Of a DNA stretch of 64,000 nucleotides, positions 3,429 through 49,004 are shown piece after piece (the stretch's first letter is position 1; every line of letters begins with the position of its first letter). The stretch lies in the IMG/VR virus record IMGVR_UViG_3300008227_000004; one strand, 5' to 3'. The notes below the pieces were generated by a model, which saw nothing but the letters and a program-made list of their open reading frames with translations, was not told the DNA's origin and made no database searches. The stretch is from a virus. Position numbers and translations under genes: made by a program.

Positions 3429-3652
3429 GACGATGCAATTTTAAAGAGCCTGATTGGTTTGAAGGGTATGAGTTTTTGGAAGTGACACCTGGTGGTGGTG
3501 ATGCATATTATGACAGCGACGGTGATCGAGCTATAATCGTTTATCACAATAAAATCAAGGTGTACAGTAATCGTAAGAAACACATGTATAGTAAACATGC
3601 ATGTTCCTTTTCTGATTGTAATGTAATTGAATGTAAGCAGAAAGTATCATGA
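3425..3652 (+). CDS. hypothetical protein
   Basis: 75 aa; ATGA overlap with upstream gene. Confidence 0.4.
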   Translation: MRRCNFKEPDWFEGYEFLEVTPGGGDAYYDSDGDRAIIVYHNKIKVYSNRKKHMYSKHACSFSDCNVIECKQKVS

Positions 3653-4089
3653 ATCTAACCAAAGTTGAACGGTTGACGTTGATTAACCAATACAAGTTAT
3701 TGATGGCTGCAGATAAATTTTGTGACCACACCGAAGAGATAAGCATTTTGAAAAACGGATATGCAAATCTATATCACGAATTGTGTGAAGATTTGCAACC
3801 AGATATGGATTTGAATTCTGGGGAGTTTTACATGAACGTGTTGAGAATGCACCAAGATTGTAATATACCTTTTCGAGGTCTTGCTATAGATGATCCGAAT
3901 GTTGACTATGTCGGTCATTTGCTACGAAATAGATTTCATAGTGTTGGTGGTCAAGCTGTATTTCGTACCATCGGATCACCACCTAATTATACTAAGATGT
4001 ATTCAATGTACCTAATGCACAACACTCAATCAGAAGACCCAATAACCAACTCAATTAGAGCCAAAATAATAACTGCAGGAATATTATAA
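3649..4089 (+). CDS. hypothetical protein
   Basis: 146 aa; ATGA overlap. Confidence 0.5.
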   Translation: MNLTKVERLTLINQYKLLMAADKFCDHTEEISILKNGYANLYHELCEDLQPDMDLNSGEFYMNVLRMHQDCNIPFRGLAIDDPNVDYVGHLLRNRFHSVGGQAVFRTIGSPPNYTKMYSMYLMHNTQSEDPITNSIRAKIITAGIL

Positions 4090-4448
4090 TGTGTACAATA
4101 TCAATAGTGGCAATTGGACTGATAATACTGGGTGTTGCATTTTTTTGTTGGGCTTTCATCGCATTGTCCGGAGTTGGGGTAACCAAAACCAACAAGAAAT
4201 ACGGTCTCCGTTTAATGAACGGTGAGAAGATACTGTGGGTTGATGAAATGCATCAAGGTGAATTCGAACCATATACTTACGTTCCGTACCTTGAGTTTTT
4301 CAGAGATTATGAACTCGCGTTGTTCATTCAATTATGTTATGCATATGATTTGAACAACACCCCAGAAGATATTCTCAAATATGTATCAAAAGTAGATGTC
4401 GATAAACTACCAATAAAATTACAACAATATATTGCAAGCAAAAATTAA
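4089..4448 (+). CDS. small membrane protein
   Basis: 119 aa; N-terminal transmembrane helix. Confidence 0.5.
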   Translation: MCTISIVAIGLIILGVAFFCWAFIALSGVGVTKTNKKYGLRLMNGEKILWVDEMHQGEFEPYTYVPYLEFFRDYELALFIQLCYAYDLNNTPEDILKYVSKVDVDKLPIKLQQYIASKN

Positions 4449-4463
4449 AAGAAGGAATGTATT

Positions 4464-4682
4464 ATGGAAATAAGCAAAACCACAGTGTGCAATGGAGTGG
4501 TGGTTGAACCACACTCAACAGATGCGTGGCAGTCTCAACTCGGTGGTGATTACGGTGAGGCTTTCGTATCTTTTAAGGGATTCCGTGATGTATTTGGAGT
4601 TATTCACAAAATCCACCAACTTATACGAAACAGTCCAACGGGGACCAAATTTAAAATAGTATTACACACATATGATAGTTGA
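4464..4682 (+). CDS. hypothetical protein
   Basis: 72 aa; GAAGGAA RBS upstream. Confidence 0.45.
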   Translation: MEISKTTVCNGVVVEPHSTDAWQSQLGGDYGEAFVSFKGFRDVFGVIHKIHQLIRNSPTGTKFKIVLHTYDS

Positions 4683-4707
4683 CATTTAGGGTAACCTAAT
4701 GTATCAT
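4679..4707 (+). promoter_or_regulatory. sigma70-like early promoter (TTGACA, 17 nt, TATCAT)
   Basis: consensus -35 with 17-nt spacer and -10, 35 nt upstream of the 4742 start; overlaps the upstream stop. Confidence 0.55.
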
Positions 4708-4741
4708 ATGTCTTTTATCAAACAAGCAAGAGAGGTACAAC

Positions 4742-5329
4742 ATGGGTTTACAAGATATATTTTGGGTTTCAGGTGATGACGAAACAGCAGATCAAGCTGA
4801 AGTGCACACACAACCAACCAAGATAAGAGCCGAACCGAACACCTCAGCCGTATCATTAACGGATGAGTTCAGTAACAATTTGCCACCAGAGATTGTATAT
4901 TTCGAAGAGCAGTGGGATTTATTTGCGGCAGCGATCAAAGATGATCGTCAGTTAATGGCTATTGTATTGATTAACACGAAGCAGAAATATCCAGATGTGG
5001 ATGCAACAGTATTGTTAGGTTTATATAATGATTGTAAGCAGTCATTGGCTGAATCAGAACAAAAACGCGTTCATGCTGCTGCACAAGAGATGCAGACAGA
5101 TGCAGCTTCGTGTGTGTCTGAATTGGAAGAGATCGAAAATGAAATTGGACTAAAACGAGTAGAAGTTGATAAACTGTTGCATATCCGTGACAATCTATCA
5201 GAAGCACTGGATCGGTTCGAAGACACCAACATCAAGTTCAATAGTGATATCGAAGATGAGTATGATGGTATACTTGCGCAGATAAACAACCAAACCAAAT
5301 TATTAATCAACAACAGTGAGAAAAAATGA
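4742..5329 (+). CDS. acidic coiled-coil hypothetical protein
   Basis: 195 aa; good RBS AGAGAGG upstream. Confidence 0.55.
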   Translation: MGLQDIFWVSGDDETADQAEVHTQPTKIRAEPNTSAVSLTDEFSNNLPPEIVYFEEQWDLFAAAIKDDRQLMAIVLINTKQKYPDVDATVLLGLYNDCKQSLAESEQKRVHAAAQEMQTDAASCVSELEEIENEIGLKRVEVDKLLHIRDNLSEALDRFEDTNIKFNSDIEDEYDGILAQINNQTKLLINNSEKK

Positions 5330-6249
5330 GCAATGAATTAATACCTAGATCATTCTGGGAACGTAAAGAAGGTATCTTCGGTATGGGTATAACAGCCCTT
5401 ATAACATTTGGAGTAGCGTATGGTGCTTGGATGTTGTTACCTTTTATCATCATCATGTTGACCAATACGATACAGACTATATTTTTAGCTATCGCGTTAT
5501 TCCTCATGGTGGCTGTTTTGAGTAATGGAACATTCCATGCAATTGCTTGGCATACTTTTAAAAGTGTTACACGTTTCATTGCTAGTTTATTCGTTACAGT
5601 AGATCCGGTAGGGATTGTAAAGAATCACATCGAGAGTCTAAAAGACAAACGAGATGATATGCAAGCTCACGTTAAGGACCTAAGAGTAAACGCTAAATCG
5701 TTGATGTCAACTATCTCGTCAAGCAAACAGGAAATCGACGACACCTTGCGTATGGCCAAAAAAGCCGAACAAGAGGGTAATGCAGCTGAATTTCGATTAA
5801 GAACCAGAAAAGCTGGTCGTCGTCAAAATTCTGTCGCAGGTTTGCAAGAGTTATATAACAAAATGGAATATTTGTTACGTATCTTAGAGAAGATCTACAT
5901 GAATTCGGGTTACAAGATTGAAGACCTGGAAGATGATGTAAACATCAAGATCAAAGAGTTTGAAGCGAGTAAGGGTGCTAGATCAGCAATATCATCAGCA
6001 TTGTACTTACTGAAAGGTGATAGCAAGCGTGATGAGCTTTTCGAATTATCGATGGATCATATGGCAGATCAAGTTGACTTAATGCTCGGAGAGCTGGATG
6101 ATATGATGTTCGTAACGAATGAAATATCAGCTTCAATAGATTTGGAAAATGGAATGTACGAAGATAAAGGATTTGAACTACTTAAACAACTTGAGCAGAA
6201 CACAAATGGGATGCTTATTACTCAACAAGAATTTATTAACTTAAAATAA
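5326..6249 (+). CDS. membrane protein with long C-terminal coiled coil
   Basis: 307 aa; two predicted TM helices then heptad-rich region; precedes the ABC-transporter-like genes. Confidence 0.55.
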   Translation: MSNELIPRSFWERKEGIFGMGITALITFGVAYGAWMLLPFIIIMLTNTIQTIFLAIALFLMVAVLSNGTFHAIAWHTFKSVTRFIASLFVTVDPVGIVKNHIESLKDKRDDMQAHVKDLRVNAKSLMSTISSSKQEIDDTLRMAKKAEQEGNAAEFRLRTRKAGRRQNSVAGLQELYNKMEYLLRILEKIYMNSGYKIEDLEDDVNIKIKEFEASKGARSAISSALYLLKGDSKRDELFELSMDHMADQVDLMLGELDDMMFVTNEISASIDLENGMYEDKGFELLKQLEQNTNGMLITQQEFINLK

Positions 6250-6265
6250 CAAAGGTATTATAAAC

Positions 6266-8029
6266 ATGGCTAGAAAAGGCAAATTAGGAATCGGATCAAA
6301 ATTCATCTTGATGTTCGTTGGTGTAGGAATTTTTATCTTCGGAGGTCAGTACTTAGTACAAGAGTATGATCCTATCGTAGCAGAAGCTCCAGCAATTCCA
6401 AACAATCTCATTCCGATGGGTAAAGATCTGACAATTTCGACAGCACCGATTACCGAATATGTATCACCGGTAACGGCATCCGGTCCAATGAGTTATCGAT
6501 GGGCCACCATTCCTTGGAATGGTATGTCAGGTGCGATGTTCGCTGTTAGTGGTGAAAACAGCTTAATGAAACAATATGGGCTGGATGTGACAATCTCACG
6601 CCAAGATTCATATTCACAAATGCAAAACGATTTAGTGACATTCGCGGAAGCATATTCCAAAGGTGACACTCACACATCAAAAGGTGTTCAGTTTGTTACC
6701 ATCATGGGTAACGGAGCTCCAGCATTTGTTGCAGAGTTAAATGAACAACTACGAACTAAGTTAGGACCAAACTATATTGCACAGATTGTTGCTGGTGTTG
6801 GGTTCTCACGAGGTGAAGATCAATGTATGGCCTCTCCAGAAGCATTAAAGAACAAATTAAGAGGTTCTTTGATCGCAGCTGTTAAAGCAGATGGTGATGA
6901 AGATATTTGTTTCGCTTACATGGGTAGTAATGGTGTAGCAAACAATCCAGATTCAACAACATACGATCCTGATAAAGTAAACTGGGTTCACGTCGATTCA
7001 TTCGTAGAAGCAGATAACAAGTGGTTAAGCAATTATTGTGAAACACGACCAGTTATCTCTAACGGTGTTAAGACTGGATCTTCTAAGAAAGTATGTGTTG
7101 ATGGTGTTGGTACTTGGTTCCCAGGTGATGATGTTGTAGCACGAGGTGAACGTCCGATTGTTACCGTAGCTTCAACAAAAGATGATTATATGTGGTTGAT
7201 GCCAACTACAGTTATCACCATCAAACAATTTGCAGAAGATAACAGAGCTGATGTAGAAAATATGTTAGCCGCAGTACTTGAAGGTGGTACACGAGTAAAT
7301 GCATCCGATGCAGACTTATTAGTATCAGCAACAACAAGTGCAGCAATCTACAAAGAAGAAAATGGTGCATACTGGGCCAAAGCGTACAAAGGCTATACAG
7401 TAAAAGGTGTCGAGGTTGGTGGTTCATATGCTAACAACTTGGGTGATGCAATCAATACTTTCGGTTTACGAGCTGGTCAAGTAGATGTTATGACAGCAGT
7501 ATTAAATGGTCGTGGTCAAGTTGCTCAGAGTCAATATCCAGATCTGATCAAAGTGTTACCAGATGCGAACGAAGTTATCAACAAATCATTCATCCAAGCT
7601 TTGATGAAACGTGTAGATGATGCTAACATTAATGTTAAACCTTTCACACCAACATTCTCTTCAACCGATACCACTTCAACAGTGGTCGGCAAGAAAGTGT
7701 GGAAGCTAGCATTCAGAACTGGTAGCGCCAACTTTACCGAAGCCTCAAAACCAACATTAGCAAAAATCGTTGAAGAACAAGCACTTACAGGGCTAAAGCT
7801 ACAGATTCATGGATACACTGATAGTACTGGTTCAGCTGCTGGCAATGCAATTCTATCCGGTAAGCGTGCTAATGCAGTCAAGACTTGGGTAACATCAAAC
7901 TACTCCAAGACTTTCCCAGACGCTCGAATCGATACAGTCGCACATGGTCAGGATGATCCAATTGCAACAAATGCAACACCAACTGGAAGAGCTTTGAATC
8001 GTCGTGTTGAGATCTGGTTAGTAAAATAA
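6266..8029 (+). CDS. envelope protein with C-terminal OmpA/MotB-like peptidoglycan-binding domain; central region possibly NMT1/SsuA-like solute-binding
   Basis: 587 aa; N-terminal signal anchor; C-terminus has the OmpA_C signature (HGYTDSTGSAAGNAILSGKRA...NRRVEI). Confidence 0.6.
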   Translation: MARKGKLGIGSKFILMFVGVGIFIFGGQYLVQEYDPIVAEAPAIPNNLIPMGKDLTISTAPITEYVSPVTASGPMSYRWATIPWNGMSGAMFAVSGENSLMKQYGLDVTISRQDSYSQMQNDLVTFAEAYSKGDTHTSKGVQFVTIMGNGAPAFVAELNEQLRTKLGPNYIAQIVAGVGFSRGEDQCMASPEALKNKLRGSLIAAVKADGDEDICFAYMGSNGVANNPDSTTYDPDKVNWVHVDSFVEADNKWLSNYCETRPVISNGVKTGSSKKVCVDGVGTWFPGDDVVARGERPIVTVASTKDDYMWLMPTTVITIKQFAEDNRADVENMLAAVLEGGTRVNASDADLLVSATTSAAIYKEENGAYWAKAYKGYTVKGVEVGGSYANNLGDAINTFGLRAGQVDVMTAVLNGRGQVAQSQYPDLIKVLPDANEVINKSFIQALMKRVDDANINVKPFTPTFSSTDTTSTVVGKKVWKLAFRTGSANFTEASKPTLAKIVEEQALTGLKLQIHGYTDSTGSAAGNAILSGKRANAVKTWVTSNYSKTFPDARIDTVAHGQDDPIATNATPTGRALNRRVEIWLVK

Positions 8030-8052
8030 CACAACACATTTAATTAACACTG

Positions 8053-8076
8053 AAAACCGGAGCAATCCGGTTTTCT
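8053..8076 (+). terminator. rho-independent terminator
   Basis: AAAACCGGA-GCAA-TCCGGTTTT hairpin with U-tract right after the 8029 stop. Confidence 0.55.
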
Positions 8077-8094
8077 CGTATAAGGGCATCAACA

Positions 8095-8895
8095 ATGTTA
8101 AAGTACATACCTAAGTATTTGTATACACCGAACATCAAACCAAGTACAACCACATATATTATAATTGCTATAGCGGAAGTGTTATTGTTGTTGTTGGTTT
8201 GGTGGATGAGTACAGTTAAAATGAACCCATCACCAATTGATATCTTGTTTGCGTTTCCGACGTTATTGGAAATCAATTTTCCACACCACCTATTGATTAG
8301 TTCGATACTAACACTCAAAGCGGTATTGTATTCAGCTACACTATCGTTATTCTTCGCGTACTTTTCCAAGTTTGCTGTTGGTCTACCAATTGGAATGATC
8401 TTCGCTACGTGTCGTTTTATGGGATTGAGTGGGGTAATCTATATATTCACGATGTCATTTGATGGTGGTGAGTCATTGAAGTTAGCGTTGTTAGTATTTT
8501 CAATGAGTGTATTCTTGACAACGAGTATGATTGAAGTTGTGTGGAGTATTCCCCAGAAGAACTTTGACTTAGCTAAGTCGTTAAAGTTTAGCCCTCTGGA
8601 GACGTTGTATGAGGTTGTTATACTTGGAACAGCACACAAGATGTTTGATTGTCTTGGTCAGAACATAGCAATATCATGGATGATGTTGGCTACGGTAGAA
8701 GGAACTGTGAGATCTGGTGGTGGTATTGGTATTTTATTGAAAGACCAAGAGAAACATTTCCACCTAGCAGAAGTTTTTGCAATGCAGATAGTTATCTTAT
8801 TCACCGGAATGGTGTTATACTACTCCATTAAGAATCTCAAATACGTTTTTTGTCCATATGCAGCAATTTCAACAGGAACGCACCATGAATTATGA
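8095..8895 (+). CDS. ABC transporter permease (NitT/TauT-like, EAA-loop region)
   Basis: 266 aa; about 6 TM helices; EAA-like loop DLAKSLKFSPLETLYEVVILGTAHKMF...AISWMMLATVEG. Confidence 0.55.
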   Translation: MLKYIPKYLYTPNIKPSTTTYIIIAIAEVLLLLLVWWMSTVKMNPSPIDILFAFPTLLEINFPHHLLISSILTLKAVLYSATLSLFFAYFSKFAVGLPIGMIFATCRFMGLSGVIYIFTMSFDGGESLKLALLVFSMSVFLTTSMIEVVWSIPQKNFDLAKSLKFSPLETLYEVVILGTAHKMFDCLGQNIAISWMMLATVEGTVRSGGGIGILLKDQEKHFHLAEVFAMQIVILFTGMVLYYSIKNLKYVFCPYAAISTGTHHEL

Positions 8896-9694
8896 ATTAG
8901 GCGATGTTATATTCGAAGCAACAAATGTTAATCATTTCATTGATGGTAAACACATCCTACGGGATATATCATTTGGTGTGAAGAATATTAAACGGACGGG
9001 TGTAAATCAGGGACAAATCATTGCTTTGTTAGGTCCTAGTGGATGTGGTAAGACACAACTGTTTAAAATACTAACAGGCTTGATTACTCCAAAAGAAGGG
9101 ATGGTTGCTATCGATCAGAAGCAAATTGTACCAGGGGATGTTGGTATCATTGCTCAGGATTACCCATTATTCCACAACCGAACAATATACAACAACCTCA
9201 GAATAGCGTTGGAACGCTCACCTGATCCTACCAACATCAAGTCTAAAATAAAATCAGCCTTGGATAGATTCCACATGGCCGATAAAGAAGATTCATATCC
9301 TGGTGAGTTATCTGGTGGTCAGCGTCAACGAATAGCCATTCTACAACAGATTTTAATTGGCCACAAGTTCTTGTTGATGGATGAACCATTTTCCGGCTTG
9401 GATATCGTCATGAAAGATGAAGTCAAAGATATGATCAAAGAAATATCATTGATGGATGAAAAGAATACAACTGTTGTAGTATCTCACAACATCAACGATG
9501 CGGCAAGTATAGCCGATCAAGTGTGGATCATGGGACACGAACGAGATGAATCGGGAAATAAAATACCTGGTGCTGTTATAAGACACAAATTCGACCTGAA
9601 AGCATTAGGGTTGACATGGCGCGAGGACATTATGGTACAACCTGAATTCATTCAATTCGTCCAACGCGTAGAAACAATGTTTAGGGAGTTATGA
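8858..9694 (+). CDS. ABC transporter ATP-binding protein
   Basis: Walker A GPSGCGKT, ABC signature LSGGQRQR, Walker B LLMDEP, H-loop; overlaps the permease end. Confidence 0.85.
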   Translation: MQQFQQERTMNYELGDVIFEATNVNHFIDGKHILRDISFGVKNIKRTGVNQGQIIALLGPSGCGKTQLFKILTGLITPKEGMVAIDQKQIVPGDVGIIAQDYPLFHNRTIYNNLRIALERSPDPTNIKSKIKSALDRFHMADKEDSYPGELSGGQRQRIAILQQILIGHKFLLMDEPFSGLDIVMKDEVKDMIKEISLMDEKNTTVVVSHNINDAASIADQVWIMGHERDESGNKIPGAVIRHKFDLKALGLTWREDIMVQPEFIQFVQRVETMFREL

Positions 9695-9695
9695 T

Positions 9696-9959
9696 ATGAC
9701 GTGCCCACAAGATATATTCAACACCTGTCCGTTTGCTTACACAGACGCTAGCGAAATTGCACAAGGGTATGGGTGCTTACCATCGCCATACGAAATCATT
9801 AAGATGCGAATCGATCACGGAAAAACTTGGGCGTGTCACGATGAGCCAACGAAACCATGCATTGGTGCTATTGCTCACCTGAAAGAAAAAGAGTTGCCAT
9901 ACAAGGTTATCGATCCCAATCTGGTGACGGAAGCTGTTGATTGGAGTGTGTATGTCTGA
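9696..9959 (+). CDS. Cys-rich hypothetical protein
   Basis: 87-aa ORF immediately after the ATPase. Confidence 0.45.
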   Translation: MTCPQDIFNTCPFAYTDASEIAQGYGCLPSPYEIIKMRIDHGKTWACHDEPTKPCIGAIAHLKEKELPYKVIDPNLVTEAVDWSVYV

Positions 9960-10136
9960 CATACGAAACCACGAACTACCATTGTTTGATATCGGAGGGT
10001 GGACTTCTTGCACGCGTTACGGTATGATATGGGTTTTATTCGAAGACGAGGACAAACAAATGAACCCCGAGTTATACGACGAAGCTGTTGGTGTAGTTAA
10101 AGAATGCATTAAAACAGGTGCCCCTCCTTTTGGAGG

Positions 10137-10562
10137 ATGGCGATGAGTGTATCAAATATGCATATTATCCCCTCAGACGACGGGAAAGTTGTTATTAGGA
10201 TCGAATCGAATGAACCAACAATTAAGGACTTTGTTCTTCCGTGTAGCTCATTGGATTGTGTGCTTACGTTAATCACCAACCACTTGACCCCACATTTCAA
10301 TCCACCACCAGTTGCAGAAGCTTTTAGTGAGGAGTGGGGCACTGATACTGAATTGGCAGGCATGAAACATAGTTGTCGAAGTGGAACAAATCCGGCAGGA
10401 CCAGAAGCTAGATTCTCATGCAGTCATTGTGGCTTGGAATTGTTTGGTGACGAAATCGGATATGTAGCAGCAGGAACAAACTACGCCAACGGAGAATTTG
10501 CTCCTTGCCCTAAATGTGGTGAGGAAGGTAGCATTGAAAGAGATGATGAGGAAAACGAATGA
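10137..10562 (+). CDS. hypothetical protein with C-terminal zinc ribbon
   Basis: 141 aa; CSHCG...CPKCG. Confidence 0.5.
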   Translation: MAMSVSNMHIIPSDDGKVVIRIESNEPTIKDFVLPCSSLDCVLTLITNHLTPHFNPPPVAEAFSEEWGTDTELAGMKHSCRSGTNPAGPEARFSCSHCGLELFGDEIGYVAAGTNYANGEFAPCPKCGEEGSIERDDEENE

Positions 10563-11086
10563 ACGTACAACAATTAGTAGCTCTGGGTATGGAAGGTCAA
10601 GAATTTTCGTATGAATTCTTTTGGCGGGTAACTGGTAACTTAGGTTGTGCCAGTCAATGGTATGTTAGTAACACATTTACCGATGGAACCACAGAATACA
10701 CCAGTGCTGAACAATATATGATGGTTAAGAAGGCCATGTTGTTTGAAGATCACACACTAGCGGTACGCATGTTATATGAGCGTGACCCCAGAGAGGTCAA
10801 GAAAATGGGTAGATTGGTCAAAGATTTTGATAATGCAGTGTGGGATGAACACAAGTTTGATATCGTTGTAGCAGGAAATTTGTTGAAATTCTCCCAAGAT
10901 GAGCACATGAAAGAAGCGTTGTTAGCTACTGGAGATAGCATTTTAGTTGAAGCTTCCCCATATGACCACGTGTGGGGGATTGGGTTGATAGCTAGACACC
11001 ACCACGCTAAGATACCAACTAAGTGGCATGGTAAGAATTTATTGGGATTTGCATTAATGGAAGTACGGGAGAAGTTGAAATGTTAG
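10559..11086 (+). CDS. NADAR (DUF1768, YbiA-like) domain protein
   Basis: 175 aa; motifs SAEQYMMVKKA, KFSQDEHMKEALLATGDSILVEASPYDHVWGIG, NLLGFALMEVR typical of NADAR; paralog of 15969-16523. Confidence 0.7.
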   Translation: MNVQQLVALGMEGQEFSYEFFWRVTGNLGCASQWYVSNTFTDGTTEYTSAEQYMMVKKAMLFEDHTLAVRMLYERDPREVKKMGRLVKDFDNAVWDEHKFDIVVAGNLLKFSQDEHMKEALLATGDSILVEASPYDHVWGIGLIARHHHAKIPTKWHGKNLLGFALMEVREKLKC

Positions 11087-31163: not shown

Positions 31164-33140
31164 ATGAGTTTTATCACAGATGCAGCAAAATCCACAACCG
31201 AATTAATTGATACACTGATCGAAGAGCATTCAACCCAGGAATTAATTGATATTCTAATGACTGCCGACGATGAATATGCCAACAGTACTGATGGTGATTT
31301 AACACTAACAGACACACAATACGACATCCTACGCCGCAAATTGCAACTCTCCGTTCCTCACCACGTATATTTTACTGGGGTTGGAAGTGCTGTCCGTGGT
31401 GGTAAAGTAAAACTGCCACATAAAATGGGCAGTCTAAACCAAATATTCGAGAATGATGTAGAAGCTTGGGTTTCTGATAACCGATTAACAACATCACGAT
31501 TTGTTATAACCGACAAACTTGACGGTGTTAGTGCGATGGTAATCTATCCTGGTAACGATGAACCGTTTCAAATTGGTTATAGTCGTGGGGATGGTACGGA
31601 AGGTGCGGATATTTCTCGTCACCTATCAAAAATTGTACCAAAATCAATACCACACCCAACATCGTTGGCTATTCGTGGTGAAATCATTCTAACAAAAGAA
31701 GGGTTTGATGTCCTGAAAACTAAAGTGTTTACTCGTCAGGGCTTAGAATACAAAAACGCTCGCAATATGGTTGCAGGGTTGATGAATTCAAAAACAAATC
31801 CGGATATCGTGTATTCATTTCTCAAATTCGTATCATACCAAATCGTTGGTGTTACTCTTAGTAAAACAGCAATGCTGTATACTCTAATGGAGTACGGCTT
31901 TAAAGTTCCCGTTCTGGCAACGCGGATGGGTAGGGATCTGAATGATCCAGACTTAATTGCATACCTAACAGAACGAAAAGAGAAAGCTGAATATGAAATC
32001 GATGGTATTGTTGTTGATGTTGATGACGAATTAGAGCGTGTGAGACTCAGTCCAAATGCTGCTGCCCTCAATCCATCATATTCATTTAAGTACAAAACGA
32101 CAGATGCTGATAATTACGCAGAAACGGAAGTTACTTGGATTGAACTGAGATTATCCAAACACGGATTCATAAAACCACGATTTCACGTTAAACCTGTTAA
32201 TCTGGTCGGTGTTACTATCGTTCATGCTACAGCCCTAAACGCCAAATACTTACTAGAAAACAAAATCAGACCAGGCACAAAAGTGGCAATCTCTCGTATG
32301 GGGGATGTGGTTCCTAATGTAACAAAGATTTTGGGACAGACCGACGAAATGTCTGATGACGAATACAACTTGTGGTTCAATGATCAAATGGATCAGTTCG
32401 GCGTTTGGACCTGGTCTACCACAGACAAAGGGGACGGTGTGGATGCAAAGGTAGTCGACATTAGCAACCATTCCATCATATTAATCAAGCAGTTATATGA
32501 TTTCTTTGATAAACTAGATATTGCGTTTCTTGGTATGGGCAATGTAACGAAATTAGTTGATAGCAAAATTGACACACCCGAATCGATACTAACAATGACC
32601 GAAGCTGAATTGGTTGGTGTGCTGGGTGAGAATGGGAAAAAAGTATTCAAAAGCATTCACGAAAAGTTAAATGGTATTACACTACACAAGCTAGTAGGTG
32701 CACACTCAAATCAACGTGGAATTGGTATACGAAAGATGCGTAAGGTTGAGCTAGCAGTTGGTGGTAACTTTACCACCAACCAATCAATATCATCGATCAA
32801 ATCGTTGGATGGCTTTGATACCATCACCGCTACGGGCGCCATGGCCGCTATAAACGCATTCAATGACTTTTTCCCCATCGTTAAGCATCTGGTAACACTT
32901 GAAAGTGCAACACCAACCGATGCTAAATTAGCTGGGATGAAAATATGCTTCACCGGCTTTCGTGATAAACCACTTCAAGCTGCTGTGGAGTCGAAAGGTG
33001 GTACAGTACAGAGTGGTGTTAGCAAAACCACCGATCTCGTTGTGACCGTTGATGTGAACGGTGCGAGTGGTAAACTAAAGAAAGCCAGAGATCTAAGCAA
33101 AAAGATCATTACAGTTGAAGACTTCATGCAGTTGTTATAA
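31164..33140 (+). CDS. ligA: NAD+-dependent DNA ligase (LigA-like) with C-terminal BRCT domain
   Basis: 658 aa; adenylation motif TDKLDGVS; OB-fold and HhH-like regions; C-terminal BRCT-like KICFTGFRDKPLQAAVESKGGTVQSGVSKTTDLVV. Confidence 0.8.
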   Translation: MSFITDAAKSTTELIDTLIEEHSTQELIDILMTADDEYANSTDGDLTLTDTQYDILRRKLQLSVPHHVYFTGVGSAVRGGKVKLPHKMGSLNQIFENDVEAWVSDNRLTTSRFVITDKLDGVSAMVIYPGNDEPFQIGYSRGDGTEGADISRHLSKIVPKSIPHPTSLAIRGEIILTKEGFDVLKTKVFTRQGLEYKNARNMVAGLMNSKTNPDIVYSFLKFVSYQIVGVTLSKTAMLYTLMEYGFKVPVLATRMGRDLNDPDLIAYLTERKEKAEYEIDGIVVDVDDELERVRLSPNAAALNPSYSFKYKTTDADNYAETEVTWIELRLSKHGFIKPRFHVKPVNLVGVTIVHATALNAKYLLENKIRPGTKVAISRMGDVVPNVTKILGQTDEMSDDEYNLWFNDQMDQFGVWTWSTTDKGDGVDAKVVDISNHSIILIKQLYDFFDKLDIAFLGMGNVTKLVDSKIDTPESILTMTEAELVGVLGENGKKVFKSIHEKLNGITLHKLVGAHSNQRGIGIRKMRKVELAVGGNFTTNQSISSIKSLDGFDTITATGAMAAINAFNDFFPIVKHLVTLESATPTDAKLAGMKICFTGFRDKPLQAAVESKGGTVQSGVSKTTDLVVTVDVNGASGKLKKARDLSKKIITVEDFMQLL

Positions 33141-33394
33141 TGAATACATTATTGGTCCTTATGGTATTGGTTCTAGGAATCGTTAATGGATTCCTAGTTG
33201 TCTGGTGGGCTACCCTATTTAATGATTACCGAAATGGGTTCATAGGCAAGTATGGTGGTAGATACGAACGAATAGCATCATTGAGCATACAAGGTGTATT
33301 GCCTGTGCTATTTGTTATCGTATTTCTGGTTATGTCGGTGGGTTTGTCTTACGTGATAACGAACGCATACTTCGCCTGGATGGTATTTTCGTAG
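33140..33394 (+). CDS. small two-TM membrane protein
   Basis: 84 aa; start abuts the ligase stop. Confidence 0.5.
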   Translation: MNTLLVLMVLVLGIVNGFLVVWWATLFNDYRNGFIGKYGGRYERIASLSIQGVLPVLFVIVFLVMSVGLSYVITNAYFAWMVFS

Positions 33395-33473
33395 CATGCA
33401 CGTGCACGTATCGAGTATAATTCAGTTTTCTAATGGGACGAATCCCAATTTTATTAACAATAAAGAGAATATT

Positions 33474-33749
33474 ATGAAACAAAAAGGCTTCACATTAATT
33501 GAGATGATGATTGTGGTAACAATCATCGGTATATTAGCATCAATCGTTATCCCTGCGGTGAAGGAAATGGAAGAGCGTAAAGGTACAACTAGTAATCCTC
33601 CCGTATTCAAATCAAAAGAGAATATTGTCCGTGAGTACCTACCAAATAAAAAACGCAGTCACAAAGAAGTTACACTAAAACAACACTCAGATGGAACACT
33701 ATATGCGTGTGATGCCATTGATGTTGATACTTGTTATCGGGTGAAATGA
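33474..33749 (+). CDS. type IV pilin-like (prepilin) protein
   Basis: 91 aa; MKQKG-FTLIEMMIVVTIIGILA is a class III prepilin leader (G-1, F+1, E+5); C-terminal Cys pair YACDAIDVDTCY; AAGAGA RBS-like. Confidence 0.6.
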   Translation: MKQKGFTLIEMMIVVTIIGILASIVIPAVKEMEERKGTTSNPPVFKSKENIVREYLPNKKRSHKEVTLKQHSDGTLYACDAIDVDTCYRVK

Positions 33750-34495
33750 TGGGAACTATGATTCTGCTGTACTTTGCATTAATTGTTGGCACTATGTTTT
33801 TTGATTTCTTACTGGAGTTGGATATGCCATTGATACTGTACGTTATCGGAACTGGTGTGTTCGTTGGGTGGGCTGCTGCGAATATTCACATGGATGCTGT
33901 CATACCGGAAACACCAATCGCTATAACACAAGATATAAAAACCATCCAAGATGACACGAAGCGGGAATTGAATGCCATCAAAGCTGATGTGAAAGCAGAC
34001 ATGAGCAAATTACGACCAGACGTTAAGGCTGACATATCGGAAGTGGTGGAACAAACCACCGATAGTGATGATAGCTCTTCAGTAAACACAGGTTTTGTGT
34101 TGGTTACTTGTGTCATCTTCGTGGTGGTTTGGATATTTACCGAAAGTTTGTTTGTTGGGATATTCGTAGCATTTATGTTCTTTTCGTTTGTCGGTGATAA
34201 CATCAGTGTCACTAGTTCAACTTCAACAAAATCAGAAGATGCAGTCCAAACACTAAAACAAGTGAACACCAAAGGTAGACGGTTTAAAACCGAATACCTA
34301 AGCAATCGCATACGAAGCAAAACACCAATATATCTGTTTAAAGGTGATGATGGACAAATAGCAACAAGCGACCCATCACTAAAAGACGAAGCACCAATAA
34401 TTTTTAAACCAATTAAATTAGTAACACATTCATCGGGGATGCTATATGCCTGTAAAGATTCTAAACAATGTTATCCGGTAGGTCAGTATGAGTAA
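33746..34495 (+). CDS. multi-TM membrane protein with pilin-like C-terminal disulfide domain
   Basis: 250 aa; several TM helices; C-terminus GMLYACKDSKQCYP parallels the pilin C-terminus GTLYACDAIDVDTCY. Confidence 0.5.
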   Translation: MMGTMILLYFALIVGTMFFDFLLELDMPLILYVIGTGVFVGWAAANIHMDAVIPETPIAITQDIKTIQDDTKRELNAIKADVKADMSKLRPDVKADISEVVEQTTDSDDSSSVNTGFVLVTCVIFVVVWIFTESLFVGIFVAFMFFSFVGDNISVTSSTSTKSEDAVQTLKQVNTKGRRFKTEYLSNRIRSKTPIYLFKGDDGQIATSDPSLKDEAPIIFKPIKLVTHSSGMLYACKDSKQCYPVGQYE

Positions 34496-35042
34496 GGTAG
34501 ATCAACACGATATGCTATTGGTGCTTGGAGATTGGTCCAGTGATGGTCACAGTCAAACAACCAACTTTGGTATCAGAACCAACAAAACGGTGGATGATAT
34601 ACAAAAAGCATACAAAGCATCATGCAAGATGACTGGAATATCCTTCAATCACAACGAGGATTATACCGAAGTCGCACGGGACTGGCGAGTGGATAAATTG
34701 TATCGAATTGCAACAGAGTATGACAAACCATTCACATATCAAGAAACGTATGATATATTAGTTGATTTGGATTGTCCTCTTGTTGATAATTTCATCAAAG
34801 GACATTATATGTATGATGGTAATGATGTGTACTACTTCAACGAAGACGATAGATTTAGACACTTTATCGACCTGTGGTTGTGGTTTGTGCAGTTGTCATT
34901 ACCCGATCTTGAGTATATAATGGCTCAAGACATTGCAATTGCTGATCCAGCATTTGCAGCATTTGATCCGCCACCACCTATTAATGGGTTTTGGAATGAG
35001 GGTCTTAACGTACAATTTGGCTATGGCCTGTACTGTCCATAA
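34488..35042 (+). CDS. hypothetical protein
   Basis: 184 aa; overlapping start. Confidence 0.5.
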   Translation: MSKVDQHDMLLVLGDWSSDGHSQTTNFGIRTNKTVDDIQKAYKASCKMTGISFNHNEDYTEVARDWRVDKLYRIATEYDKPFTYQETYDILVDLDCPLVDNFIKGHYMYDGNDVYYFNEDDRFRHFIDLWLWFVQLSLPDLEYIMAQDIAIADPAFAAFDPPPPINGFWNEGLNVQFGYGLYCP

Positions 35043-35048
35043 ATAACA

Positions 35049-35069
35049 GCGATGAGATAGACTCATCGC
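35049..35069 (+). promoter_or_regulatory. conserved hairpin element upstream of natV (GCGATGAG-ATAGA-CTCATCGC)
   Basis: perfect 8-bp stem with ATAGA loop, 27 nt before the natV ATG; same architecture upstream of nadV. Confidence 0.45.
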
Positions 35070-35095
35070 ATAACAATAACCTAGGAGGATTTCCT

Positions 35096-36133
35096 ATGAA
35101 TACAGAAGAACAATACGACTACCTCGTGTACATTGGTAGATTTCAGCCATCTCACTTGGCACACATCGAAACAATCAAAATTGCGTTACAACAATCCAAA
35201 AATGTTATAATACTAATCGGATCGTCATTTCAACCAAAGACAATCAAAAATCCTTGGTCATGGCAAGAACGTGCGGAAATGATCAGCAACTCGCTATCTC
35301 ATAGCGAAAAACTCAGAGTACAATTTGCACCCATTGCGGATGATGCTTACAACAATCAACGTTGGGTTACACAAGTCCAAAAAATGGTCGAAACGTTAAG
35401 CACCGAAGGAAGCCACATCGGAATGATCGGTCACACTAAAGATGACACATCATTCTACTTAAAAATGTTTCCTCAATGGAAGCATGTTGAGGTTCCTAAT
35501 ATCAACGACTTGCACGCAACTGACATCCGTGTCGCTTTGTTTGAACACTCAACAGACTTTTTCAGCAAACAAGTTATGCCAACATTACCAAAAGCTATTC
35601 ACGAATACTTGTTGGCATGGAAGCTAAAACCTATCTTCGAACAACTGAAATATGAATATGAATTTATACAGAAATATAAATCCGCTTGGGCTGTAGCTCC
35701 ATATGAACCAATCTTCGTGACAGTTGATGCTGTAGTGGTGCAATCAGGACACGTGTTATTGGTAAAACGGCGATCGGCTCCAGGAAAAGGATTGTGGGCT
35801 ATTGTCGGGGGGTTTGTAAATCCAAACGAGACTCTCATTGATGCTATGTTACGGGAATTAAGAGAAGAGACTAAAATTAAGGTGCCCGATCCTATATTAC
35901 GGGGGAATATCAAAATACAAGAGGTGTACGATCACCCTGCCCGAAGTTTACGGGGTAGAACTATAACACATGCTTACGGTATCGAATTACCACCAGGTGG
36001 ACTTCCAAAAGTGAAAGGAAGCGATGATGCTGAAAAAGCACAATGGATTCCGATTACCACAATTAAAGAAATGCGCGATCAATTGTTTGAAGATCACTAC
36101 GATATTATTTTTGATATGTTGGGACGGTTGTAA
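35096..36133 (+). CDS. natV: bifunctional NMN adenylyltransferase / Nudix ADP-ribose pyrophosphatase (NatV/NadM-Nudix-like)
   Basis: 345 aa; N-terminal nucleotidyltransferase motif YIGRFQPSHLAH (HxGH-type); C-terminal Nudix box GGFVNPNETLIDAMLRELREETKI; strong RBS TAGGAGGA. Confidence 0.85.
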   Translation: MNTEEQYDYLVYIGRFQPSHLAHIETIKIALQQSKNVIILIGSSFQPKTIKNPWSWQERAEMISNSLSHSEKLRVQFAPIADDAYNNQRWVTQVQKMVETLSTEGSHIGMIGHTKDDTSFYLKMFPQWKHVEVPNINDLHATDIRVALFEHSTDFFSKQVMPTLPKAIHEYLLAWKLKPIFEQLKYEYEFIQKYKSAWAVAPYEPIFVTVDAVVVQSGHVLLVKRRSAPGKGLWAIVGGFVNPNETLIDAMLRELREETKIKVPDPILRGNIKIQEVYDHPARSLRGRTITHAYGIELPPGGLPKVKGSDDAEKAQWIPITTIKEMRDQLFEDHYDIIFDMLGRL

Positions 36134-36177
36134 TAAATAACCTGGAAGAGAGCATTATCTCTTCCAGGAGACCACAC

Positions 36178-36792
36178 ATGGAAATGATAAACTTTAAACA
36201 ACGGTGGGATATATTATATCAAACGACAGACGATGTAGCTGAAACGTTAGTGGAAGCAAAACAACGCAATGCCACATATTATCGCCACATCTGTAAAAAA
36301 CACGGAAAAGTATTATTTTACACAAAAGACAATAGCTGTCCAATTTGTTGTAAGGTTGCTCGTGATATTCGTGTTACCCACAATAGGGTGTTTAATAGAT
36401 CCCGTGAAATATACAATGAAATTAAACAACGGGCAAAAAAAAAGAATGTTTTGTTTTTGTTGACAAAAGAAGAATTTAGAACAATATATGGAACAGTGCA
36501 TCTATGTCCGGTACTTCATATACCGATAGTATATGATAAAATCGAAGGAGTAATGACGGATAATTCTCCGTCCACTGATAGACTCATACCCGAAAACGGA
36601 TATACAATGGATAATATTAACATTATATCGAATCGAGCCAATCGGATAAAAAACAACGGAACACCAACCGAACACATACAAGTTGCTATTTGGCAATTGA
36701 AACAAGAGGGTAATACTGCGGAAGATATATTGGATATAGTAACAACGGCACTAAACTCAACCAACATCGTCAATGCTTTCATTGGTGACTAA
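36178..36792 (+). CDS. HNH homing endonuclease inserted between natV and nadV
   Basis: 204 aa; HNH_3-like DRLIPENGYTMDNINIISNRANRIKNN motif; zinc-binding CPICC. Confidence 0.55.
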   Translation: MEMINFKQRWDILYQTTDDVAETLVEAKQRNATYYRHICKKHGKVLFYTKDNSCPICCKVARDIRVTHNRVFNRSREIYNEIKQRAKKKNVLFLLTKEEFRTIYGTVHLCPVLHIPIVYDKIEGVMTDNSPSTDRLIPENGYTMDNINIISNRANRIKNNGTPTEHIQVAIWQLKQEGNTAEDILDIVTTALNSTNIVNAFIGD

Positions 36793-36850
36793 CAAAACCA
36801 GTTGTCGAGCATTGCAGTTACAGGTGATGCTTTTTATTTTTAACGCACAA

Positions 36851-36873
36851 GGGATATCGATAGACGATATCCC
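36851..36873 (+). promoter_or_regulatory. conserved hairpin element upstream of nadV (GGGATATCG-ATAGA-CGATATCCC)
   Basis: perfect 9-bp stem with ATAGA loop, 24 nt before the nadV ATG; followed by GAGGATTTC RBS block shared with natV. Confidence 0.45.
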
Positions 36874-36897
36874 ACGCAAACATAGAGGATTTCTATA

Positions 36898-38322
36898 ATG
36901 AACTTTTTACAACACGCAGTTTTTAACATTTTACTAAACACAGATTCATATAAAGCGAGCCATTGGTTGCAGTATCCCCCTGGTATTGAGTATGTTCACT
37001 GCTATATTGAATCGCGTGGTGGGGTATACGATGAAACGGTATTCTTCGGATTGCAGATGTTCTTACAAGAATACATGAGCAAACCAATCACACAAGAAAT
37101 GATTGACGAAGCGGAATTGTTCTGGCCTGCTCATGGTGAACCATTCAACAAAGAAGGATGGCAACACATATTAAAAGAGCACAACGGTTACTTACCGTTA
37201 AAAATCAAGTCGGTGGCGGAAGGTACTGTTGTACCGGTAAGCAATGCACTGGTTACTATCGTTAATACTGATCCGAAATGCTTTTGGTTACCATCACACG
37301 TCGAACCATCGATATTACGTGGTGTGTGGTATCCAACTACAGTAGCAACCAACAGCTGGACCACCAGAAAAGTAATTACGAGTTACATGAAATCAACATC
37401 CGACTTAACCGGACAAGAACAGGAAGATGCTATCGATTTTATGTTGCATGACTTCGGATCGCGTGGTGTTAGTTCACTGGAAAGTGCCATGATTGGTGGA
37501 GCTGCACACTTGGTAAATTTCAAAGGATCTGATAATGTACCAGGTATAGTTCACGCAAATAGACAATATTCGCATGAGATGTCAGGAAAATCTGTACCAG
37601 CATCCGAACACAGTTCAATTACTACATGGGGCAAGGGACGGGAGACAGAAGCATATCGCAATATGTTGAAGCAATATGGAGACAAGTTCTTCGCATTCTC
37701 TGTGGTATCCGACTCGTACGATATTTTCAATGCAGTTGAACATATCTGGGGTGATGAGCTGAAAGAATTGGTTATTGAGTGTGATGGGTGGCTAGTTATC
37801 AGACCTGATAGTGGTGATCCAGCAACCGTGGTAACAAAAATTATGTTGTTGCTTGAATCCGCATTCGGTTACATCCGTAATACCAAAGGCTATAAAGTAC
37901 TAAAACATGTTCGAGTGTTGCAAGGTGATGGCATTACAACCAAAAGCATTGATGCTATATTATCGAAGATGGTTGGATACAAGTTCAGTGCGGAAAATGT
38001 ATTATTTGGACAGGGTGGTGCGTTATTACAACAACTGGATCGAGATACTGGCAGATGGGCATATAAAGCAAGTGCTGCATTTATCAATGGTGAGTGGGTC
38101 GATGTATTCAAAGATCCGATTACCGATACCGGTAAACGCTCGAAACGTGGACAATTAATGTTATACCGTTCGGATGCAGGTAAATTTACAACAGATTGTA
38201 TTGGGGCAAAAACAATGGATGAACAAATGCTCACTCCTGTGTACCTAAATGGTAAAATATTGCGAACTACAACATTGGAAGAAGTTCGTACTACTAGATT
38301 CAACACAACTAACACATTATGA
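36898..38322 (+). CDS. nadV: nicotinamide phosphoribosyltransferase (Nampt/NadV)
   Basis: 474 aa; NAMPT hallmarks DSYKASHW, LHDFGSRG, GSDNVPG, RPDSGDP. Confidence 0.9.
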   Translation: MNFLQHAVFNILLNTDSYKASHWLQYPPGIEYVHCYIESRGGVYDETVFFGLQMFLQEYMSKPITQEMIDEAELFWPAHGEPFNKEGWQHILKEHNGYLPLKIKSVAEGTVVPVSNALVTIVNTDPKCFWLPSHVEPSILRGVWYPTTVATNSWTTRKVITSYMKSTSDLTGQEQEDAIDFMLHDFGSRGVSSLESAMIGGAAHLVNFKGSDNVPGIVHANRQYSHEMSGKSVPASEHSSITTWGKGRETEAYRNMLKQYGDKFFAFSVVSDSYDIFNAVEHIWGDELKELVIECDGWLVIRPDSGDPATVVTKIMLLLESAFGYIRNTKGYKVLKHVRVLQGDGITTKSIDAILSKMVGYKFSAENVLFGQGGALLQQLDRDTGRWAYKASAAFINGEWVDVFKDPITDTGKRSKRGQLMLYRSDAGKFTTDCIGAKTMDEQMLTPVYLNGKILRTTTLEEVRTTRFNTTNTL

Positions 38323-42136: not shown

Positions 42137-43231
42137 ATGTTAATATATGTAGTTGGTGGTGCCGTTAGAGACACCTTACTAAACCAACCAGTAAACGATA
42201 TCGATTATGTTGTTGTCGGTTCAACGCCCGAAGAGATGGAGTCGTTAGGCTACAAGCAAGTTGGAGCGGACTTTCCCGTATTCTTATGCCCCAATGGCGA
42301 TGAATACGCATTAGCTAGAACCGAGCGGAAAAACGGTAACGGTTACAATGGGTTCGAAACGAACTTCAATCCCACCGTTACCTTAGCCGAAGATCTACTA
42401 CGCCGTGACCTAACTATTAACTCAATGGCAGTATTGCTATCTGATTGGGATCAGTTCAAAACAACACATGATGTTACCAAAGTGATCGATCCATGTGGTG
42501 GGTTGCAAGATCTTGTTAACAAAACACTAAAACACACATCCGAGCATTTCGCGGATGATCCAGTACGATTGTTGCGAATAGCTAGATTCAACGCTAAGTA
42601 TGGGTTCAATGTAACCAGACAAACAATGCAATTGATGACAACAATGACCACAAACGGTGAAGTGGATCATTTGGTACCCGAACGTGTGTGGGCTGAAACA
42701 GCTAAAGCAATCGAGCTACCAAATGCAATGGAGTTTTTTTGGATACTCCATCGATGTGGAGCATTGAATGTTATCATACCAGGGCTAACAAAAACTCTGG
42801 TAGCAAATGGAAAATCGTTTAGATCGGCAACACTCAGAAATTGCAGCACCGCCATCCGAATGATGATATTATTTGGACCGATGCTGGATGCTTCTGACGC
42901 ATTAACAAAGCTACGAGCACCATCATCAGTAATCAGAGATGTGCTAGCATTTCAACATGCTATGCAATTGGTGAGCAACGATGTAACACCAGAGGCTGTA
43001 TTGGGATTTTTAAAAACAATAAAAACTTCTGAATTGCTCTACGATATTTCAACCGCCATTAGTGTAGTGAATCCATCAGGGGCGTTGATATACGATCGCG
43101 TTATACAAGGACACAACCTCATCAGATTTATATCGTTTCGTTCGCTACCGGCCAATCATACGTTGGAAGGTAAGCAAATTGGTGTAGCAATCGATAATCT
43201 TCGCATCGCAGTTATTGCTGACCTATTATGA
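42137..43231 (+). CDS. cca: tRNA nucleotidyltransferase (CCA-adding enzyme)
   Basis: 364 aa; VGGAVRDTLLNQPVNDIDYVV and RRDLTINSMA are class II CCA/poly(A) polymerase head motifs. Confidence 0.8.
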   Translation: MLIYVVGGAVRDTLLNQPVNDIDYVVVGSTPEEMESLGYKQVGADFPVFLCPNGDEYALARTERKNGNGYNGFETNFNPTVTLAEDLLRRDLTINSMAVLLSDWDQFKTTHDVTKVIDPCGGLQDLVNKTLKHTSEHFADDPVRLLRIARFNAKYGFNVTRQTMQLMTTMTTNGEVDHLVPERVWAETAKAIELPNAMEFFWILHRCGALNVIIPGLTKTLVANGKSFRSATLRNCSTAIRMMILFGPMLDASDALTKLRAPSSVIRDVLAFQHAMQLVSNDVTPEAVLGFLKTIKTSELLYDISTAISVVNPSGALIYDRVIQGHNLIRFISFRSLPANHTLEGKQIGVAIDNLRIAVIADLL

Positions 43232-47109: not shown

Positions 47110-47186
47110 GGGGTTGTAGCTCAGCTGGAACGAGCATCTGCCTTGCAAGTAGAGGGTCGGGGGTTCGAATCCCCCCAGCTCCACCA
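47110..47186 (+). tRNA. tRNA-Ala (anticodon UGC)
   Basis: cloverleaf: acceptor GGGGTTG/CAGCTCC, D-arm GCTCAGCTGGAACGAGC, anticodon loop CTTGCAA, T-arm GGGGGTTCGAATCCCCC, CCA encoded. Confidence 0.8.
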
Positions 47187-47622: not shown

Positions 47623-47695
47623 GCCTTAGTAGCTCCAATGGTAGAGCTCTAATTTCGTAATTTAGATGTTGCTGGTTCGACTCCAGTCTAAGGCT
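47623..47695 (+). tRNA. tRNA (anticodon CGU, Thr by rule)
   Basis: acceptor GCCTTAG/CTAAGGC perfect; D-arm GCTCCAATGGTAGAGC; T-arm GCTGGTTCGACTCCAGT; anticodon loop TTCGTAA. Confidence 0.65.
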
Positions 47696-47699
47696 CACA

Positions 47700-48227: not shown

Positions 48228-48242
48228 CAATAAGGAAGTAAC

Positions 48243-48903: not shown

Positions 48904-48914
48904 TTTTAATAATA

Positions 48915-48986: not shown

Positions 48987-49004
48987 CAAACAAAAAGGAT
49001 AATA

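Follow-up and report, generated by a model that had tools for sequence, protein, structure and literature searches.

A cassette of five tightly packed genes lies on the + strand at positions 4742–9694 of a 64,000-nucleotide (nt) stretch of viral DNA (IMG/VR record IMGVR_UViG_3300008227_000004), the whole of which we refer to as the window. It combines genes for a membrane-anchored PspA/IM30-like protein and a coiled-coil partner with those for a putative ATP-binding cassette (ABC) importer whose solute-binding protein is fused to an OmpA-like domain. Operons for PspA-associated ABC import are widespread in bacteria and recur in huge phages, and the cassette is a phage-borne form of these that lacks an AAA+ ATPase. 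Its most likely function, to which we assign a probability of roughly 0.55, is as an envelope-maintenance module that would couple PspA-like protection of the inner membrane with peptidoglycan-tethered solute import. The five genes and two candidate expression signals are as follows.

4679–4707, + strand: sigma-70-like promoter match (TTGACA-17-TATCAT), 35 nt 5′ of the w195 start
4742–5329, + strand: w195, 195 amino acids (aa), cassette-specific coiled-coil partner; its stop codon overlaps the w307 start
5326–6249, + strand: w307, 307 aa, putative PspA/IM30-like protein (ESCRT-III superfamily) with an N-terminal hairpin of two transmembrane (TM) segments
6266–8029, + strand: w587, 587 aa, TM anchor, NitT/TauT-type solute-binding domain and OmpA-like domain
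8052–8075, + strand: hairpin GAAAACCGGA-GCAA-TCCGGTTTTC between w587 and w266, predicted to be terminator-like in both directions
8095–8895, + strand: w266, 266 aa, divergent permease of the NitT/TauT ABC importer type, in which the EAA loop is a variant
8858–9694, + strand: w278, 278 aa, ABC ATPase; overlaps the end of w266, with an alternative start at 8885

A preliminary description made from the sequence had reported a unit of four open reading frames (ORFs) between 5326 and 9694, and all four are present on the + strand at those positions. The conserved unit is larger, however, and starts with w195. Homologues with E-values of 1e-18 to 1e-150 were found for each of w307, w587, w266 and w278, and because these are in the same order elsewhere, the four are real genes and not chance ORFs.

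The importer genes

An AlphaFold2 model of w587 built on 40 homologues is confident (predicted local distance difference test score, pLDDT, 86.4; predicted template-modeling score 0.81), and divides the protein into four segments.

aa 9–34 (6290–6367, + strand): TM helix, which has no lipobox Cys
aa 35–72: linker, disordered in the model
aa ~73–462 (6482–7651, + strand): two-lobed alpha/beta solute-binding domain
aa 473–587 (7682–8026, + strand): alpha/beta OmpA-like peptidoglycan-binding domain, also identified by Pfam

The C-terminal domain matches the Pfam OmpA family (PF00691) over residues 483–579 with an E-value of 3e-16 (60 bits, against a cut-off of 27.2), and a Foldseek search returns OmpA-like domains including 3td3 and 3td5 (template-modeling score to target ~0.8). 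Both of the motifs by which this domain had originally been recognized, HGYTDSTG and NRRVEI, are found, and residues T518, D519, R534 and N578-R579-R580 are invariant across the family; we take D519 and R534 to be the peptidoglycan (stem-peptide) contacts, as in solved complexes of OmpA-like domains. The middle of the protein had been suggested to be NMT1/SsuA-like, and the predicted structure agrees, with a periplasmic-binding-protein (PBP) fold of the TauA/CmpA/NrtA type. The best Foldseek match of the central domain in the PDB is TauA (3e-11; template-modeling score to target 0.73), and others include CmpA (4e-10), NrtA (5e-10), SsuA, ThiY and Thi5. The NMT1 family (PF09084) is matched by nine of 40 family members, and there are clean NMT1/NMT1_2 matches in the orthologous slot of a Tenacibaculum operon. 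Many polar residues of this domain are invariant.

The permease gene product, w266, has hydrophobic segments that fit approximately six TM helices, as had been proposed, and weak NCBIfam matches to NtrB (4e-6) and TauC (7e-3). When a profile of the w266 family was compared with the whole PDB, the only matches were CmpB (6e-6, over positions 25–253 of 262) and NrtB (2e-4), and 12 of 15 family members match BPD_transp_1 (PF00528; best 3e-9). ABC-transporter family matches are thus present at the family level. The EAA-like loop is a variant one, FDLAKSLKF...VVILG at residues 157–178, and the family pattern D-x-A-(R/K)-(T/S)-L...V-V-I-L-G, in which D158 is nearly invariant, aligns with the EAA loop of CmpB and NrtB.

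The ATPase, w278, is as canonical as the preliminary description had it. It contains Walker A (GPSGCGKT, residue 59), Q100, the signature LSGGQ (residue 151), a Walker B segment that includes the catalytic Glu (FLLMDE, residue 171) and H210, and it matches Pfam ABC_tran with an E-value of 1e-27. It is 43% identical over its full length to ATPases of the bacterial cassettes, and extends at its C-terminus by some 50 residues that are conserved and specific to the family. All of the components of the ABC importer with an OmpA-fused binding protein that had been postulated for this phage are therefore present, and because of the fold of w587 and the family matches of the permease, we predict that w587, w266 and w278 constitute a complete binding-protein-dependent importer of the NitT/TauT type (TauABC, SsuABC, NrtABCD, CmpABCD).

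The PspA-like protein and its upstream partner

The product of the gene preceding w587 had been described as a two-TM coiled-coil protein, and it does have two hydrophobic segments, at residues ~20–43 and ~48–66, with positive charges flanking both and long helices following; what had been overlooked is that it is probably PspA/IM30-like. In the predicted structure the two N-terminal TM helices leave both termini in the cytoplasm, and after them come a long helical hairpin (pLDDT ~90) and two more helices, such that the cytoplasmic hairpin and further helices span residues 94–295. When the model was compared with the PDB using Foldseek the top 12 matches were all to Vipp1 or PspA, with CHMP1B, Snf7 and CdvB next. 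The amphipathic N-terminal helix alpha0 is not present in w307, and the two-TM hairpin at residues ~20–66 stands in its place.

Profile searches show that w307 is a member of a discrete family of proteins of ~330–345 aa, with 351 matches in a word-indexed search and 1,481 clusters at 50% identity in an exhaustive one. The relatives are named in the source databases as 'PspA/IM30 family protein' or 'phage shock protein A'; PF04012 (PspA_IM30) is annotated on four of the relatives listed and is matched by 12 of 36 family members (best 2.9e-7). Comparison of the family profile with PDB sequences matched nothing, PspA included, and an hhalign comparison with an approximate Escherichia coli PspA was not significant; the latter, in which one sequence is compared with a coiled-coil profile of low diversity, is uninformative. 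In a related Acidobacteria operon the position of w307 is occupied by a bona fide PspA_IM30 protein (56.7 bits, above the gathering threshold), and this correspondence of position is the strongest independent support for a PspA-like w307. We conclude that w307 probably belongs to a membrane-anchored PspA/IM30-like family within the ESCRT-III superfamily.

The first gene of the cassette, w195, encodes a protein whose N-terminus has a short hydrophobic or amphipathic motif and whose C-terminal half is helical, with a low-complexity linker between them. An iterative hidden Markov model (HMM) started from w195 recruits 81 of the 87 ORFs located immediately 5′ of PspA-TM genes, with almost no off-target matches among 10,434 ORFs, nearly all of the others being upstream genes as well. 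A member of the w195 family is upstream in each of 41 viral loci found using the PspA-TM family as the seed, and others are in the jumbo phage RsoM2USA (gp55) and in the Lak megaphage Lak-B7. Searches of the family against Pfam gave no identity, only scattered coiled-coil noise, and a profile comparison (hhalign) with the w307 family revealed no relationship between the two. The protein is only 30% identical to its counterparts in the two nearest relatives of the window (L168, 3763–4356, and L169, 1264–1830), with a ratio of nonsynonymous to synonymous differences (pN/pS) of 0.69–0.77, whereas the binding proteins of the same phages are 86% and 73% identical to w587. The w195 gene therefore evolves much faster than its neighbors in the cassette, which may reflect a coiled coil under relaxed constraint or else a surface engaged in an arms race.

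Distribution of the cassette

Relatives of the PBP-OmpA protein are present in at least 549 bacterial species, a count obtained from a pattern scan with the genomes confirmed, spanning Acidobacteriota, Armatimonadota, Bacteroidota, Gemmatimonadota, Myxococcota, Proteobacteria and Candidate Phyla Radiation bacteria. Cultured carriers of the transporter include Tenacibaculum, Serratia microhaemolytica, Undibacterium and Emticicia; a PspA-TM gene adjoins it in the first three, and none was detected adjacent to it in Emticicia. The cellular loci are flanked by housekeeping genes. Among viruses the PBP-OmpA gene was found in at least 87 IMG/VR contigs, of which 80 were kept for analysis, 26 of these being 200–578 kb in length. 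With genes defined by HMMs, the PspA-TM, PBP-OmpA, permease and ATPase genes are in the same order as in the window in 67 of these 80 viral loci, and this order is also seen in Longimicrobium and Campbellbacteria. The block of four genes is thus conserved in related phages, and the set is not the unusual one it had been taken for.

Several of the phage examples are informative. Of the phage genomes on deposit, only that of the uncultured huge phage LR756500 (LR756500.1) has the full window-type cassette. A megablast search with the region as query gave no match among 50,697 phage records, and w587 itself had no entry in the contig index consulted. Lak megaphages have a very divergent full cassette in which the binding protein nonetheless retains its TM, PBP and OmpA parts. 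One example is Lak-B7, a Prevotella phage (L167), in which an unannotated cassette at 4048–10858 encodes a 229-aa partner, a 355-aa PspA-TM protein, a 527-aa TM-PBP-OmpA protein, a 277-aa permease and the ATPase, with three extra small ORFs between the binding-protein and permease genes. Cassettes of this Lak type are present in approximately 14 further IMG/VR loci. A second example is the cultured Ralstonia jumbo phage RsoM2USA (L166, 4344–5909), in which only the w195/PspA-TM pair is present, as gp55 and gp54, both annotated as hypothetical. The w195/PspA-TM pair is the invariant core of the system.

Small ORFs of 70–250 aa often interrupt the cassette in viral loci (L006–L085) and seldom do so in cellular ones. 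In the closest full relative of the window (L169) a gene for an HNH endonuclease (6412–6999) lies directly 3′ of the cassette ATPase gene.

The cellular operons have additional members. In the Acidobacteria operon the PspA and transporter genes are joined by ones for a 300-aa TM protein and an AAA+ protein, and the Tenacibaculum operon has clean Pfam calls for PspA-TM, NMT1-OmpA, BPD_transp_1, ABC_tran and AAA+. The extra genes in Acidobacteria and Bacteroidota (L101, 10417–13030; L212, 11473–14283) code for two proteins, a conserved one of ~300 aa with TM segments and an AAA+ ATPase that is 572–631 aa long; in Tenacibaculum a 2-oxoglutarate-Fe(II) oxygenase gene, for which no phage search was made, is next after the AAA+ gene. 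A phmmer search with the L101 and L212 AAA+ proteins as queries gave 19 matches in cellular loci and none in the viral loci or anywhere in the 64-kb window. For the ~300-aa TM protein a single marginal match was obtained in the viral loci (L022, 24.9 bits), and the window gave no match.

Phage residence and selection

We considered whether the cassette could be passenger DNA, either captured recently from a host and lacking a role in the phage, or present through misassembly or contamination. The nearest non-viral relatives of w587 are contigs of bacterial metagenome-assembled genomes, Methylococcales and Chitinimonas (40–43% identity), as such an origin might predict. However, the closest relatives of all (L168 and L169; 86% and 73% identity) are on syntenic, phage-like contigs, nine of ten large ORFs flanking the viral loci match PHROG families, and the GC content of the cassette (0.38–0.41) is that of the rest of the window. 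In a neighbor-joining tree of the binding proteins, all-viral clades (16, 14, 9, 9, 7 and 7 members) are interspersed among cellular ones, and the cassette is present in the curated, complete huge-phage genomes LR756500 and Lak. Finally, comparison of w307, w587, w266 and w278 with their L168 and L169 counterparts gives nonsynonymous divergences (dN) of 0.09–0.29 with synonymous sites saturated, a pattern that indicates purifying selection on these four of the five genes. The passenger explanation is thus already largely refuted.

Candidate expression signals and genome context

The promoter match at 4679–4707 agrees with the consensus at 11 of 12 positions and is the best in the interval 4300–10200, but the total number of promoter-like sites in that interval equals the expectation from shuffled sequences, so that a promoter just upstream of w195 is only suggestive. 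The hairpin reported earlier between the binding-protein and permease genes is present at 8052–8075. It has a perfect 10-bp stem and a 4-nt loop (free energy −16.8 kcal/mol, z −3.6), with equal folding in one of 200 shuffles, is U-rich on its 3′ side, and stops 19 nt before the permease ATG. It is plausible from this arrangement that the permease and ATPase are expressed separately from the upstream genes.

The window is clearly of phage origin, as it encodes an NAD-dependent DNA ligase, NAD+ salvage genes, a CCA-adding enzyme, seven tRNAs and an RnlA-like ligase. The window ligase is closest to those of jumbo phages such as Phosso, XacN1, RAS14/CM1, Xoo-sp13 and Atu_ph07. Features outside of the cassette are as follows.

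3649–4089: 146-aa YfbU-domain protein (PF03887, E 2.7e-8), upstream of the cassette
10559–11086: NADAR-domain protein (PF08719, E 5.5e-52), ~900 nt 3′ of the cassette
31164–33140: NAD-dependent DNA ligase
35096–36133: NadR-like cytidylyltransferase/NUDIX protein
36898–38322: nicotinamide phosphoribosyltransferase (NAMPT)
42137–43231: CCA-adding tRNA nucleotidyltransferase
47110–52118: cluster of seven tRNAs (Ala, two Thr, Ile, Asn, Lys, Val)

Genes within 31164–38322 form an NAD+ salvage set that is typical of large phages. NADAR domains have been connected with the metabolism of NAD and ADP-ribose, and the NADAR gene at 10559–11086 fits with the salvage genes elsewhere in the window.

Proposed function and alternatives

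The envelope-maintenance role that we favor could operate as follows. The w307 protein would sit on the cytoplasmic face of the inner membrane, using its own TM hairpin as an anchor in place of alpha0, and together with w195 would assemble there during infection, keeping the membrane sealed and energized through the long infection cycle of a jumbo phage. The binding protein w587, fixed between the inner membrane by its TM helix and the peptidoglycan by its OmpA domain, would capture a small polar solute and pass it on to dimers of the permease and the ATPase, which would take it up at the expense of ATP. Membrane protection and uptake would in this way be coupled as a single module serving envelope maintenance rather than nutrient scavenging. 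We propose a joint role because the linkage of the two parts persists across bacterial phyla and in two very divergent phage variants. The preliminary description had offered a repurposed envelope-remodeling machine as one possibility, and the envelope-related part of that suggestion is favored by the PspA-like linkage and the wall anchor.

Several observations weigh against this interpretation. First, the two halves of the cassette can occur apart: the w195/PspA-TM pair is found lacking a transporter in RsoM2USA and in three IMG/VR contigs (L174, L204 and L211), and some bacteria have the transporter with no adjacent PspA gene, which argues that the halves are separable in function. We infer the functional coupling of PspA and the transporter from gene linkage, which is its sole basis, and in the literature searched there is no experiment on any member of the cassette, either in cells or in phages. 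Second, two of the window proteins are not themselves matched by the relevant Pfam families. For w307 there is no PF04012 match at E<0.1, and w266 falls below the threshold for BPD_transp_1, so that both assignments rest on family-level matches, fold and synteny. Third, a profile of the PBP part of w587 matched none of the solved PBPs by sequence when searched against the PDB. Because of this, and because its identity to any solved or characterized PBP is 10–14%, no ligand can be proposed, and the nicotinamide- or thiamine-precursor-like compound mentioned in the preliminary description is unsupported.

A more elaborate reading of the same linkage, which we hold only tentatively, is that huge phages carry an ESCRT-III-like membrane-repair machine. 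The TM-anchored PspA and w195 would be coupled to the peptidoglycan-anchored ABC proteins, which would replace a Vps4-like AAA+ ATPase as the sensor or as the source of energy, and would protect the inner membrane against puncturing by abortive-infection effectors or against premature lysis. By analogy, such a machine would be the bacterial-virus counterpart of the eukaryotic ESCRT-III repair of gasdermin and MLKL pores.

An alternative explanation is that the cassette encodes a plain auxiliary nutrient importer, for example for a sulfonate, nitrate, bicarbonate or a vitamin precursor, with the PspA-like and coiled-coil genes as unrelated neighbors. All three importer components are present and, as judged from sequence and models, look functional; phages do carry ABC-transporter genes that are classed as auxiliary metabolic (phrog_293), and this phage evidently invests in the metabolism of its host, given the NAD+ salvage genes of the window. 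We nonetheless consider the explanation unlikely, and plain nutrient scavenging, which had been put forward earlier as one possibility, is poorly supported. In 67 of 80 viral loci, and in many bacterial phyla as well, the transporter genes accompany those for the PspA-like protein and w195, and the wall anchor is fused to the PBP in every case, even in the Lak type; soluble or lipid-anchored PBPs used for scavenging need none. This invariant linkage and the anchor argue against plain scavenging. No genes for substrate utilization are adjacent, and the PBP has no sequence-level similarity to PBPs with known ligands.

It is also doubtful, although conceivable, that the ABC proteins are an ATP-driven mechanotransducer or sensor, in which the PBP senses a signal from the periplasm or one derived from peptidoglycan, its docking sets off ATP hydrolysis, and hydrolysis in turn regulates or remodels the PspA-like polymer, replacing a Vps4-like or AAA+ ATPase in the variants that lack one. 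The cellular variants with canonical PspA have the extra AAA+ protein, and none was found in the viral loci sampled or in the window; the C-terminal extension of the ATPase is conserved and particular to this family; and the PBP has two tethers and therefore cannot diffuse. A link between membrane remodeling and solute transport has been proposed by Ravi et al. (2024; mSystems, PMC11237479). However, the permease has a type I importer fold (CmpB/NrtB-like) that is known only for import, the invariant polar residues of the PBP fit a normal ligand pocket, and a contact between the ATPase and PspA is neither shown nor predicted. A device for lysis or for spanning the envelope, akin to spanins, Tol-Pal or MotAB, in which a TM coiled coil and an OmpA protein bridge the envelope layers and so control lysis, is very improbable in spite of the TM and coiled-coil architecture, the OmpA/MotB-type domain and weak ZorB (MotB-like) matches to the OmpA part, since w307 has two TM segments with both ends predicted to be cytoplasmic and its coiled coil is therefore not periplasmic, the cassette has no MotA/ExbB/TolQ-like channel protein, and it is conserved in free-living bacteria beside housekeeping genes.

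If the envelope-maintenance interpretation is correct, many of the largest phages bring both membrane protection and a complete transporter into the cell, and envelope homeostasis joins the host functions that are taken over by jumbo phages. It would also provide a handle on a widespread PspA-linked bacterial operon, for which RsoM2USA gp55/gp54 and the cultured Tenacibaculum, Serratia microhaemolytica, Undibacterium and Emticicia are tractable systems, and finding the ligand of the PBP domain, which is strongly conserved, could reveal a solute that is tied to envelope stress. Even if the cassette should be an ordinary importer it would be a complete phage-encoded ABC importer, of which we found no report in the literature searched.

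Comparison with known systems

No report of a phage-borne cassette of this type was found in the literature searched, and it is not mentioned in the jumbo-phage survey by Iyer and Aravind, a 2026 jumbo-phage review, Al-Shayeb et al. (2020) or a 2025 review of ESCRT-III; a Jug-phage paper has only a 'pspA-like gene' next to terD. The closest precedent is a cellular PspA/Snf7-associated operon with genes for an ABC ATPase, for a permease and for a PBPB-OmpA protein (e.g. OGG56892.1), which Ravi et al. (2024; PMC11237479) describe in one computational sentence, from cellular genomes and coupled with an AAA+ ATPase; the word 'virus' does not occur in their main text. That operon is of the same kind as the window cassette, with PspA-like, PBP-OmpA, permease and ATPase genes. 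It differs in having the AAA+ ATPase, which is missing from the window and from all phage loci sampled, and the sentence does not name the w195-family partner, which is conserved in the phage cassette.

The cassette shares its PBP fold, permease family and standard ABC ATPase with the NitT/TauT importers (CmpABCD, NrtABCD, TauABC, SsuABC and ThiXYZ). Unlike those of these importers, its PBP is TM-anchored and OmpA-fused, is 10–14% identical and cannot be detected by a sequence profile, and the cassette differs further in its variant EAA loop, the C-terminal extension of the ATPase and the linkage to a PspA-like gene. With PspA, Vipp1 (IM30) and LiaH, w307 is predicted to share the alpha1-alpha2/3 hairpin and further helices; PF04012 is matched within its family, and canonical PspA replaces the w307 type in related operons. 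It departs from them in having a fused two-TM anchor in place of alpha0, in the remoteness of the sequence relationship and in being phage-encoded. In other PspA-type systems the membrane anchor is supplied in trans, by LiaI or by PspB/C.

Two other kinds of system were considered and rejected. FtsEX-EnvC, in which an ABC system works with cell-wall enzymes and a coiled-coil protein, has its coiled coil (EnvC) in the periplasm and no binding protein, and FtsX has a type VII (MacB-like) fold that is not homologous to w266, the cassette permease. A search for known anti-phage defense systems using PADLOC gave only generic ABC-ATPase (mad3, AriA) and MotB-like (ZorB) domain matches.

The PstS protein of cyanophages is a lone phage binding protein with a known ligand that uses the permease and ATPase of its host. 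Like w587, it is a phage-encoded periplasmic solute-binding protein; in the cassette, by contrast, the phage supplies the complete transporter, along with a wall anchor and two proteins associated with PspA.

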